DNA of 64,000 bases from Thermoanaerobaculia bacterium. GTDB taxonomy: Bacteria > Acidobacteriota > Thermoanaerobaculia > Multivoradales > Multivoraceae. The notes under the pieces are model-generated. The model saw only the letters and a program-made list of their open reading frames with translations, was not told the DNA's origin and searched no databases. Shown here one piece after another: positions 25,655-55,335 of this stretch; the first letter of the stretch is position 1, and every line of letters begins with the position of its first letter. The translations under genes and the position numbers were made by a program. Location: the NCBI GenBank assembly GCA_965116445.1, contig OZ220688.1, positions 1,349,149 through 1,413,148 of the forward strand, in the 5' to 3' direction.

Positions 25655-25730
25655 GTGGAGCGAGGCTGGCGCCTCGCGCGTTTCTCTCCGGAAAGCCGAC
25701 GGGGACGTCGGCGCACCCAGTCGGGCACGG
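25655..25730. repeat. REP-like element copy (GCGAGGC..GCCTCGCGCG hairpin + GCCGACGGGGACGTCGGCGCACCCAGT)
   Basis: Exact core motifs seen. Intergenic, upstream of the 25798 lipoprotein gene. Confidence 0.75.
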
Positions 25731-25797
25731 CGTGAAGAACCCTCGGCTGCCATACTGCAGCCGATCCGACCCCCAAAGGGCCGGAAGGAGCTTCACG

Positions 25798-26481
25798 ATG
25801 AAGGCGCGCACACTGGCAATCTTCGCCGTCCTCTTCTCGGGTTGCGGCGGCGCGTCACCCGAGGCCACGGTGGTCGAGGGCCCGGGCGCCCTGTCCATCC
25901 GGGGCGAGGTCTGGGCCGATAACTGGTTCGCCTTCTACCTGGACGACCGCCTGATCGTCGAGGACTCGACGCCGATTACGACGGAGCGGTCTTTCAATGC
26001 GGAGGCCTTCGTCTTCCGCGCCGACTATCCCCTGCAACTGAACTTCATCGCGAAGGACTTCAAGCAGGACGATACGGGCCTGGAGTACATCGGCCGCGGC
26101 AACCAGCAGATGGGCGACGGCGGACTCATTGCACAGTTCACGGATACCGCCACGGGCGAGACCGTCGCGGTGACGAACGCCGCCTGGCGATGTCTCGTGA
26201 TCCACGAGGCGCCGCTCGACCGCGCATGCGCGGACGAAGCCGAGCCGGCGCCGGGTGCGGGACCCTGCCAGTTCGAGGCGAAGGCGGCGCCCGAGGGCTG
26301 GCGCGAGCCCGGATTCGACGATTCCGGATGGCCGACGGCCGTAGAGCACAGCGCCGCCGCGGTCAGACCGAAGGGCGGGTACGACGACATCTCGTGGCGG
26401 GGCGGAGCGCGTCTGATCTGGTCGGCGGACCTGGAGACGCAGAACACGCTGCTGTGTCGGATGACGGTGCAGGCACCGTAA
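25798..26481 (+). CDS. Hypothetical lipoprotein (227 aa)
   Basis: RBS GGAAGGAG before ATG 25798. Signal plus lipobox FSGCGG. No recognisable catalytic motif. Confidence 0.5.
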   Translation: MKARTLAIFAVLFSGCGGASPEATVVEGPGALSIRGEVWADNWFAFYLDDRLIVEDSTPITTERSFNAEAFVFRADYPLQLNFIAKDFKQDDTGLEYIGRGNQQMGDGGLIAQFTDTATGETVAVTNAAWRCLVIHEAPLDRACADEAEPAPGAGPCQFEAKAAPEGWREPGFDDSGWPTAVEHSAAAVRPKGGYDDISWRGGARLIWSADLETQNTLLCRMTVQAP

Positions 26482-26590
26482 CGGTAACGGGCGCCGGATG
26501 CCGGCGGGAACCCGTGTGGCGCGGTCCGCGCCACACGCGAACCAGTCCGTGCGCCCGTCGTCGGGCGCACGGATGGCACGCCGGCGTACC
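26470..26590. repeat. Degenerate REP-like cluster (GTGTGGCGCG-GTCC-GCGCCACAC and GTGCGCCCGTCGTCGGGCGCAC hairpins, ...GCCGGCGTACCAGTG)
   Basis: Seen in sequence between convergent genes. Confidence 0.55.
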
Positions 26591-53659: not shown

Positions 53660-53787
53660 ACTCCTTGAACAGGTGCCGTCTTTACAGTTGAGGCAAGTTT
53701 CGCCCACTGGGCGCGCCTGCGTCGCAGCGGAGCGAGGCCGTTGGCCTCGCGCGTCTTTTTCAGAGAGCCGACGAGGACGTCGGCGCA
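53657..53787. repeat. REP-like element with the same 60-nt leader (TAG = leuS stop codon), truncated at GGCGCA by the IS110 insertion
   Basis: TAGACTCCTTGAACAGGTGCCGTCTTTACAGTTGAGGCAAGTTTCGCCCACTGGGCGCGCC ... GCCGACGAGGACGTCGGCGCA. Confidence 0.8.
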
Positions 53788-55230
53788 TGTATGGTCCGCC
53801 CCGCTTGTGCAAGGGCTCTTTCCGGGTTTCTGGCGAGGTAGGTGCAGTTGCTTGCATGTATTCGGCCTGTTGGTGGGAGTCTCTGAGAGAGAGCTCCCTG
53901 GCCCCGATGGAATACGCGCGCGTCGGCCTCTTCACACCCAGACGGCCTCTTGATGGGCCCTGCGCCGACTCAGGCTTCTCAACGCGCCGGTCCGACCTGT
54001 TTCGCCATCGCTCGAATGAGTCCCCGCAAACTGCTTGGTGGGGCGATTCTCCTATCGTTGGTTCGCTGTTCCCCGAGCCGTCTACGCCGCGGCCCGTGAG
54101 TCCCTTGCTCGACCGCCGACATGGCGTTCGTCGCTGTAGCGTTCGTCGTGTCGCAGCACCGCCCAGGCGATTCGAGCCAGCTTGTTGGCCACGGCCACCG
54201 TGGCGACGTTCGCCCCCCGGCGCCGCTTGACGTCCAGAGCCCATTCCTTGAGCCGCGTCCGCTCGCCCTTGTGGGCTGTGCGCAGCACCGCCCGCGCACC
54301 GTGGATCAGAAGCGCCCGCATGTAGCGGTCCCCGCGTTTGCTGATCCCCAACAGCCTCGTGTGCCCGCCGGTCGATGCCTGACGAGGCACCAGCCCGAGA
54401 AACGCCGACATCTGACGGCCGCTGCTGAAGGCCCAGCCCGAGCCGACCGACGCCACCAGCGCCGTCGACACCATCGGACCGATCCCCGGGATCGACATCA
54501 AACGCTCGGACAGGGGGTTCTCCTTCGACTCCCGCTCCAGCATCGCCGTCAGATCCGCCACCTGATCGTCGACCTGCATCAGCGCCTGGTGCTGCATGCA
54601 CAAGAGAGCCCGAAAGTCGCCCGGCAGGGCCCGCTCCGGGTCCGACGCGATCGCAGGCACCTCCCGCTTGATCACCGCCAGACCCTGAGGCAGCACGATC
54701 CCGTACTCCCGCAGAAAACCACGTAACTGGTTCGCCAACTGCGTGCGCACACCAACCATCGTCTCCCGACTTCGGTGGATCTGCTGCAGCGCCCGGCGCT
54801 CCTTCGTCTTGTAAGGCACGAAACGCATCGTCGGACGCGACACCGCCTCGCAGATCGCCTCCGCGTCGTGGTAGTCGCTCTTGTTCGACTTCACGTACGG
54901 ACGGACAAACTGCGGACTCATCATCCGCACGTCGTGGCCCAGATCCCTCAGCTTCTCCACCCAGTGGTGCGCGCCGCAGCTCGCCTCCATCCCCACCAGG
55001 CACGGCTTGAGCCGCGACATCAACTCCATCAGCCGCGGTGCCTTCAACTGACGCTGAAACACCACCGCGCCCGACGCGTCCATCCCGCACACCTGGTACA
55101 CATGCTTGCCCAGATCGATACCGACTCGAGTAACCTCCTTCACGGTCCGCCTCCTCCTTGTTGTTCGGAAGAAAACACCATTCTGGCCCCAACGAGAGGC
55201 CGTAAGGGTGCGGGGCGGACCATCCCATTA
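53788..55230 (-). mobile_element. IS110-family insertion sequence (1443 bp) inserted into a REP-like palindrome
   Basis: Flanks GGCGCA|...|CCCAGT reconstitute the REP half-site GGCGCACCCAGT. The interior has lower GC than the flanks. Contains an IS110-type transposase. No terminal IRs, as expected for IS110. Confidence 0.7.
54082..55143 (-). CDS. IS110-family (DEDD) transposase
   Basis: N-terminal [13 protein letters not shown] (DEDD_Tnp_IS110) and C-terminal helix-hairpin-helix region [17 protein letters not shown] typical of IS110/IS1111 transposases. Confidence 0.85.
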
Positions 55231-55335
55231 CCCAGTCTGTGCGTTCCTCCGACACTGGGTGCGCCGGCGTCCCCGCCGGCTTCTGAGGAAGACGCGCCGC
55301 GAAGCGGCGACCATCCTGCGGCCCCAGGAGGGAAT
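55231..55335. repeat. REP-like element, right flank of the IS110 insertion (CCCAGT-N16-CACTGGGTGCGCCGGCGTCCCCGCCGGC)
   Basis: Seen directly. Completes the palindrome split by the IS. Confidence 0.75.

Follow-up and report, generated by a model that had tools for sequence, protein, structure and literature searches.

REP-like mobile palindromes in a Thermoanaerobaculia chromosome, with a linked RAYT transposase and an insertion sequence that targets them

Repeat units in the window

We analyzed a 64,000-nt stretch (the window; ~69% G+C) of contig OZ220688.1 from a Thermoanaerobaculia bacterium, in which short GC-rich palindromes recur, mostly between genes. These repeats are a genuine family of small mobile palindromic DNA elements of the kind known as repetitive extragenic palindromes (REPs), and 15 units lie at 11 places. 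The original prediction, made from the sequence alone, had placed a REP-like family at 10 or more intergenic loci; all 10 of the sites it listed are real, with an excess over chance in the window. One copy, at 7968-8045 inside the coding sequence (CDS) of apbE, had been overlooked. The units, together with an insertion sequence (IS) that splits one of them, are listed below in window coordinates.

7968-8045 (+): REP-derived unit of 78 nt, in frame in the apbE CDS, whose parts are a degenerate head, hairpin 1 and two more hairpins; covariance match at 7971-8006 (E 6.9e-8), 81% complementary to 37109-37189
8913-9015 (+): long-form unit, head plus REP stem GCCGGC..GCCGGC around two extra hairpins; predicted three-way-junction fold (z -5.7), 87-93% identical to the 26.5-kb copy in complementary orientation
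25657-25722 (-): two-hairpin REP unit; covariance E 6.6e-11
26494-26594 (-): long-form unit filling nearly the whole gap between a convergent gene pair; predicted fold z -5.7, blastn identity of 91% to loci L075 and L080
27686-27719 (-): short REP unit with an ATCCGC tail, between co-directional genes; covariance E 5.5e-11
29009-29042 (-): degenerate REP unit, head-to-head with 29059-29124; covariance E 1.8e-6, predicted fold of the pair z -5.4
29059-29124 (+): two-hairpin REP unit; covariance E 1.4e-11
29141-29196 (-): variant unit with an exact head and a long-form-like interior, tail-to-tail with 29059-29124; covariance E 0.014, predicted fold of the doublet 29055-29200 z -4.2
31328-31361 (-): short REP unit between convergent genes 62 nt apart; covariance E 5.5e-11
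35250-35283 (+): short REP unit with a 49-nt module (35201-35249) directly before it; covariance E 1.1e-12
37037-37185 (both strands): tail-to-tail, REPIN-like doublet of 37037-37102 (+) and 37109-37185 (-); predicted to form one long hairpin (-71.4 kcal/mol, z -9.7)
53705-53787 (both strands): compact doublet of a degenerate head at 53705-53730 (+) and a two-hairpin unit at 53729-53787 (-); covariance matches at 53703-53744 and, truncated at model position 10, at 53761-53787
53788-55229 (-): IS1111-group (IS110 family) insertion sequence with its transposase at 54082-55143 and a candidate target-binding loop of the 3' non-coding RNA at 53926-53975; NCBIfam NF033542, 349.5 bits
55230-55237: remainder of the right-hand head of the doublet 53705-53787, split off by the IS, from junction analysis
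55253-55312 (+): two-hairpin REP unit, head-to-head partner of the IS-split unit; covariance E 2.5e-11

Motif counts in the window lie well above those of shuffled sequence (100 shuffles). The 18-nt core GCCGACGTCCCCGTCGGC, allowing up to 3 mismatches, has 12 matches versus 1.07 expected, and the 13-nt head CACTGGGTGCGCC, allowing up to 2, has 15 versus 4.3; counts of at least 12 and at least 15, respectively, were reached in 0 of the 100 shuffles. A covariance model of head plus hairpin, built from 73 distinct copies and run over the window without filters, gave 11 matches with E <1e-4 and three weaker variants (29170-29198, 53703-53744 and 8911-8954). It missed the long-form copy at 26494-26594, which is 87-93% identical to 8913-9015, because of the insert in the loop of that copy. 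Neither Rfam at its gathering threshold nor a tRNA/tmRNA scan matched anything in the window. A CRISPR or other spaced array was ruled out by the irregular spacing and mixed orientation of the units.

The constant part of a unit is an invariant head of 9-10 nt, CACTGGGTGC, followed directly by a hairpin of 7 bp with a 4-nt loop (GCCGRCG-TCCC-CGYCGGC). Sub-families differ in the tail, which is either a short ATCCGG, or TTTCYGAGAGAAAC plus a second hairpin GCGAGGCC..GGCCTCGC, or TGCYGCCG.AGGCRGC followed by a further hairpin. A second GC-rich hairpin had been proposed beforehand; it is present, as GCGAGGC..GCCTCGC, in four units (25657-25722, 29059-29124, 37037-37102 and 53729-53787). Two copies of the long form, near 8930 and 26500, measure ~100 nt, their REP stem enclosing ~70 nt that make up the two extra hairpins of the three-way junction. 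Recurring six-frame peptides in the window, HWVRRRPRR and P(T/A)GT(S/P)AHPVG, had likewise been ascribed to the repeat and are translations of the unit.

A database search with an exact 28-mer of the repeat returned at least 104 stretches of genome contigs. They belong to at least 18 species-level metagenome-assembled genomes (MAGs) labelled Ca. Multivorans (classified as Acidobacteriota, class Thermoanaerobaculia), Thermoanaerobaculia, Holophagales or Acidobacteria bacterium, and no viral contig matched. Similarity between the window and the 104 stretches is limited to the repeats, the flanks being unrelated. The family is a sharp sequence signature for a clade of uncultured Acidobacteriota.

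The hairpin is maintained by compensatory change, with the head fixed. As an unselected test set we used 100 exact 9-mer heads, none of which had been picked by the 28-mer query; a perfect 7-bp stem lies behind 60 of them, versus a background of 0.2%. The head is constant over five stem sequences (GCCGGCG, GCCGACG, GCGGGTC, GCCGGCC and GCTGGCG), each with its complement. In the alignment of copies, both-sided changes occur at 4 of the 7 stem pairs and fill 45 cells versus 7.8 in shuffles, and sliding the partner by 1-3 columns leaves at most 5 such cells. Pairing in this alignment reaches 99.2% of stem cells, a figure inflated by the choice of copies for their stems; the double-change counts and the unselected-head test are independent of that selection.

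Neighboring units recur in a few arrangements. At related loci, tail-to-tail pairs are separated by 93-127 nt (n=20), head-to-head pairs mostly by 23 nt (n=12), and tandem pairs by 7 or 17-26 nt (n=25). The tail-to-tail doublet of the window, taken as 37033-37189, is predicted to fold into a single long hairpin at the energy given above, and the doublets at 29.0-29.2 kb are predicted to fold better than their shuffles. By these fold predictions, inverted doublets with heads outward form long hairpins and are REPIN-like, that is, like the hairpin-forming REP doublets of other bacteria.

Gene calls came independently from two fragments of ENA sample ERZ25069412 (L108 and L109) that are >99.9% identical to the window. 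By these calls, 13 of the 15 units sit in intergenic gaps, one in apbE and one at a gene start; as only ~12% of L109 is intergenic, the extragenic bias in the window is strong. The original prediction had put the units mostly between convergent or co-directional genes. Gaps of both kinds do hold units (convergent at 26.5, 31.3 and 35.3 kb; co-directional at 27.7 and 53.7-55.3 kb), but the preference falls away, since divergent gaps (25.7, 29.0-29.2 and 37.0-37.2 kb) hold similar numbers. A general terminator role, also suggested beforehand, is not supported: terminator-like sites between 25 and 38 kb number 2 versus 4.6 expected, one of the two inside a REP unit. A few copies, read in reverse orientation, present a hairpin and then a T-rich run, e.g., GCGAGGCCGTTGGCCTCGCGCGTCTTTTTC after leuS at 53729-53760. 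Individual copies may have been co-opted for regulation, but this is not the general explanation.

A relatively AT-rich module of 49 nt, CTAGACTCCTTGAACAGGYGCCGTCTYTACAGTTGAGGC..., occurs at 35201-35249 and 53656-53704 and abuts a REP head both times. Its start lies 1 nt ahead of the TAG stop codon in two unrelated genes, and the two copies are 88% identical over a 73-nt alignment that runs into the REP. The module has no stable fold, no further copy in 118 loci and no match in two metagenome scans.

Filled and empty sites and a linked transposase

Units are mobile within genomes, as seen at two sites that are filled in the window and empty in a relative with a 92%-identical ApbE. The apbE gene (7531-8667) encodes a 26-aa net insertion (query residues 143-174) that is absent from homologs in the Protein Data Bank (PDB). 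Among orthologs, this insertion is absent from the 92%-identical protein (P0207), present in P0205 and P0206, and absent again from more distant sequences. DNA alignment with loci L116 and L117 leaves a clean gap of 78 nt, exactly window 7968-8045. The long-form unit at 8913-9015, which follows the DUF4266 gene, is also absent from L116/L117, and there the DUF4266 gene overlaps the DUF3570 gene. In the region near position 8.9 kb the lengths differ by 162 nt net, made up of ~156 nt around the unit and a separate 6-nt indel, and the DUF3570 frame is open through the unit. No target-site duplication is visible at either polymorphic site.

When window 8857-9216 is set against L116:2743-2940, the position of the long-form unit coincides with the 5' end of the relative's DUF3570 CDS. 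The open frame through the unit amounts to ~52 extra residues before the signal-peptide-like segment of DUF3570, and the translated stretch leading up to that segment shows no ATG, GTG or TTG start. For annotation, the units warrant caution, because they create spurious open reading frames (ORFs) and alter real genes, as with the ApbE insert and the apparently shifted DUF3570 start.

No gene for a REP-associated tyrosine transposase (RAYT) was found within the window. A search elsewhere in the genome had been proposed, and it yielded one: the 4,889,901-bp chromosome of the window encodes a single RAYT ortholog, P0177 (227 aa). Three proteins of the window are recorded on a contig of 4,889,901 bp, and the one contig recorded for P0177 has that same length. 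A tblastn search gave the initial pointer and served as that only; its candidates were then checked against Pfam and NCBIfam. RAYT ORFs in relatives (L066:2943-3593 and L070:7048-7716) reach 32.6 bits and 29.3 bits, respectively, on Pfam Y1_Tnp (cutoff 23) and 81.7 and 78.5 bits on NCBIfam REP_Tyr_transpos (cutoff 80), and both contain the HUH and Tyr motifs NHVHVLVEP and YIWLNPV. P0177 keeps these motifs intact and scores 81.5 bits on NCBIfam NF047646 (cutoff 80); it aligns to E. coli TnpA-REP (PDB 4ER8) with E 2.4e-4 over a span that includes both motifs. A homolog search with the RAYT gave 2,733 homologs, for several of which the source label is 'REP element-mobilizing transposase RayT'.

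Orthologs of this gene are flanked by the repeat units. In L066, the RAYT lies between two clusters of these units, each with a tail-to-tail doublet. Clusters on both sides of the gene recur in three ortholog lineages (L066, L070 and L110-L113), the third of which is that of P0006, found at loci L110-L115 with the same layout. P0006 is 93% identical to P0177, and the units around it in L110-L113 are of the window's sub-type, with a GACG/CGTC stem, a TTTCCGG.. tail and a second hairpin. The C-termini of P0177 and P0006 read DWVRRP, which is the translated REP head.

Tandem head fragments that lack a hairpin, CACTGGGTGCGCCGC.. and CACAGGGTGCGCCGC.., stand beside RAYT genes (L110:2320-2400 and 1276-1330; L066:2560-2700, reverse strand). 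One of them ends after CACTGGGT, the same base as the insertion point of the IS described below. Such head-only fragments may have been left by repeated rounds of cutting and rejoining at the head.

An IS1111-group element at the repeat head

The transposase encoded at 54082-55143 contains the domains PF01548 (DEDD, RuvC-like) and PF02371 (Transposase_20), and its NF033542 score of 349.5 bits compares with a cutoff of 140. An identical protein is present on 11 contigs. Subterminal inverted repeats occur as ATGGTCCGCCCCGC at 53791-53804 and its inverse at 55210-55223, and the non-coding part before the gene measures 86 nt (89 nt under an alternative boundary) and the one after it 294 nt. Elements of the IS1111 group have their bridge/seek RNA on the 3' side of the transposase gene (PMC12288879). 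By its domains and layout, the window IS is assigned to the IS110 family, IS1111 group.

That the repeats might serve as an IS target was among the earlier suggestions, and it is borne out. All four IS copies compared share one insertion base within the head and one orientation with respect to the REP, and the insertion point is again the same in five complete relatives of the IS. The junction reads ..ACTGGGT^AATGGGATGG....GGACCATACA^TGCGCCGRCG.., and in the window the element splits the left member of a head-to-head REP pair.

The 3' non-coding region can be drawn with an outer stem GCCU/AGGC around GUCGGCGCA, a small stem-loop and GUCUGGGUG. The 9-nt arm GUCGGCGCA is exactly complementary to TGCGCCGAC, which makes up the target's right half, and the segment GUCUGGGUG equals the top strand of the left half. 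The fold of the region as a whole is no better than that of shuffles (z -0.12), and isolated 6-7-mer matches of the IS RNA to the target are expected by chance. As short matches alone are not significant, the case for a guide rests on covariation in relatives. A sister IS lineage (L122-L125; transposase 87% identical) resides in REPs with the stem GCGGGCC-TTCT-GGCCCGC, and its arm, GCCCGCGCA, is the exact complement of TGCGCGGGC, with two compensatory changes in an otherwise conserved region. The covariation is good evidence that a putative RNA guide leads the IS to the REP and that this guide tracks the host's REP variant. The IS pair would then be a natural example of retargeting of a bridge/seek-RNA guide by two compensatory changes. 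For AUACAUGC and UAUUCCAUC, considered as donor-binding arms of the IS RNA, the evidence was too weak to claim that role.

In L122-L125 and L119, from genomes with sister IS lineages, a further conserved motif, GCWGCAGTAGAGAA, lies 30-45 nt upstream of the left IS junction and ~25 nt before the head TCTCTGGGTGC of the targeted REP variant; motif and head may together form a longer REP variant that contains GTAG. A related IS at L120:1747-2000 (transposase 81% identical) loses similarity ~210 nt into the 3' non-coding region; this copy appears truncated and adjoins a DDE_Tnp_1 transposase gene.

Tandem repeats of other kinds also occur in the window. Positions 4783-5262 hold a long (GAYGGN)n and (GACGAY)n array of 9-, 12- and 18-nt periodicity, whose + strand would encode an Asp/Gly-rich low-complexity sequence; codon-position G+C favors the opposite strand in part. 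At 48169-48424, 12 copies of the 21-nt repeat GCCCAGGAGCGCAAGCGGAAG, equivalent to 7-residue repeats, lie inside a called 300-aa gene with a weak DUF8196 match only.

Interpretation and relation to known systems

The directly observed family, its structure, its linkage to a RAYT, the presence/absence polymorphism and the site-specific IS insertion with guide covariation are best explained by a REP/REPIN-RAYT system, a new family of a well-known kind (probability about 0.85). On this explanation, REPs and REPIN-like doublets would be short non-autonomous mobile DNAs that combine a 7-bp hairpin with the invariant single-stranded head CACTGGGTGC next to it, and the single-copy RAYT of the chromosome, a Y1 HUH tyrosine transposase, would copy them within the genome. 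RAYT catalysis and a single-strand mechanism are what we infer by analogy: on the model of E. coli TnpA-REP and IS608 TnpA, single-stranded DNA would be bound at its hairpin, the head would serve the enzyme as guide and as signal for cleavage, and cutting and rejoining would leave no target duplications. Copies survive mainly in intergenic gaps of any gene orientation, and in genes only if the frame is kept. Secondarily, the junction of head and stem is the target of an IS1111-group element, which would find it via a guide segment in the 3' non-coding RNA of the IS.

Several points weigh against this explanation. REP flanking was seen at orthologous RAYT loci, and the evidence at P0177 itself is indirect, namely the head-encoded C-terminus. 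Catalysis by the RAYT on these REPs is assumed from relatives of the enzyme. NCBIfam RAYT scores fall at the cutoff (78.1-82.6 versus 80), and the model does not cover the first ~95 residues. In place of the canonical GT[AG]G, the 10-nt head has GTGC as its 5' tag. In its NHVH and YIWLNP motifs and its length of ~220 aa, a resemblance of motif and length to a published table, the RAYT looks most like subclass 2.1, and no REP association has been reported for RAYTs of that subclass (Bertels group 1; PMC6006769, PMC5581495). Finally, at 15 units in 64 kb, the chromosome-wide copy number of ~1,000 is an extrapolation from window density.

Tail-to-tail doublets might instead be miniature inverted-repeat transposable elements (MITEs), deletion derivatives of an IS with 28-bp terminal inverted repeats (TIRs) moved by a DDE transposase, with single units as decayed halves. 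The doublets have their heads outward like TIRs and a narrow size range, and acidobacterial Y1 transposases were earlier described as TIR-associated (PMC3733652). We nevertheless consider this origin very improbable: neither the doublet ends nor the two polymorphic sites show a target-site duplication, each of the polymorphic insertions consists of one single unit, ~0.9 Mb of loci contained no full-length parent IS with these ends, and the sole gene consistently embedded among units is that of the Y1 transposase. Slightly less improbable, though still poorly favored, is that the units are host regulatory hairpins (terminators, stabilizers of mRNA 3' ends or protein-binding sites) that are selected and immobile. 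Many copies stand just past stop codons (26.5, 31.3, 35.3 and 53.7 kb), and the second hairpin is followed by a T-rich run in one orientation, e.g., after leuS, yet units also occupy divergent promoter gaps in both orientations and terminator-like sites are not enriched. Nor does immobility agree with the in-frame apbE insert, with the two units absent from a close relative, or with a 28-mer that is identical over many species between unrelated flanks.

The least credible of these proposals credits the repeats to the IS110-family element, as attachment sites or footprints spread by the IS and not by the RAYT. In favor, these units are the only insertion sites of the IS, and they match its RNA guide. 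Against this, IS110-family recombination is conservative and makes no targets, the 15 REP units in 64 kb far outnumber IS copies (identical transposase on 11 contigs), and units surround the RAYT gene in genomes and loci without the IS.

If the REP/REPIN-RAYT explanation is true, it extends REPIN-RAYT partnerships to Acidobacteriota, beyond the Proteobacteria and Cyanobacteria where REP-RAYT partnerships were defined, with a different recognition tag, and it makes this RAYT a natural test case for guide-sequence reading by Y1 transposases. A more ambitious joint claim would hold that (i) a third kind of REP, neither GTAG nor CGTC, is run in Acidobacteriota by a subclass-2.1-like RAYT, a type reported to be REP-less, (ii) these REPs are parasitized by an RNA-guided IS1111-group IS whose guide co-evolves with the host REP stem variant, and (iii) REP units are occasionally fixed as in-frame protein insertions. 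We put this combination forward tentatively, at somewhat less than even odds.

REPs, REPINs and RAYTs are already well described (PMC3116915, PMC3337134, PMC5581495), as are IS110 elements that target REPs (PMC12288879). Canonical REPs carry GT[AG]G at the foot of the hairpin, 0-2 nt 5' of it (PMC6006769), and the other large REP super-family carries a CGTC tag (PMC3733652). In the literature searched, we found no paper linking REPs with Thermoanaerobaculia.

The closest parallel is with REPs and bacterial interspersed mosaic elements (BIMEs) and with REPIN-RAYT systems, such as the E. coli REP with TnpA-REP (4ER8), the REPINs of Pseudomonas fluorescens and RAYT groups 2 and 3. As in those systems, a conserved, unpaired 5' tag stands before a short GC-rich hairpin; copies occur in both orientations and, within the window, are many and mostly extragenic; inverted doublets can form long hairpins; a Y1 HUH transposase gene, present once, sits between clusters of units; and related species have the family in common. 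Unlike those systems, the tag here is CACTGGGTGC (foot GTGC) in place of GTAG/GTGG, the host belongs to Acidobacteriota, class Thermoanaerobaculia, and the doublets are mostly tail-to-tail with 93-127-nt spacers that carry further hairpins. The RAYT also differs, with ~220 aa that include an extra N-terminal region of ~95 aa; residues Q95, E100 and H101 of the E. coli enzyme, which have roles in GTAG recognition (PMC6006769), are replaced by M, D and R (WQ..EH to WM..DR).

With the GTAG and CGTC REP superfamilies (Di Nocera et al. 2013, PMC3733652), the family shares a stem in the 5-13-bp range, a 4-nt loop, head-to-head and tail-to-tail dimers, clusters and occasional intragenic units, but it has neither GTAG nor an unpaired CGTC tag. 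The TIR-associated (TIRYT) transposase genes of Terriglobus, Koribacter and Acidobacterium (PMC3733652) differ from the present RAYT gene, which is flanked by a hairpin family that is probably abundant genome-wide. As in Rickettsia palindromic elements (RPEs), a palindrome lies in frame inside a protein gene, tolerated as an extra surface segment (26 aa in ApbE here); unlike RPEs, for which no linked transposase is known (PMC3733652), the present family has one and, in the window, is overwhelmingly intergenic.

The IS resembles ISPpu9 and ISPpu10 of P. putida and IS621 of E. coli in its one-position, orientation-specific insertion into REPs, its preference for REP doublets and its target-complementary RNA segment. 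It differs from ISPpu9 (IS110 group) in its subterminal inverted repeats and 294-nt 3' non-coding region, an IS1111-group layout (PMC12288879), and from all three in a guide arm that changes from one sister lineage to the other along with the resident REP stem variant. Set against these systems, the points of moderate interest are the non-GTAG tag, the in-frame insertions into coding sequence whose presence varies between close relatives, and an apparently RNA-guided IS whose guide covaries with the REP.

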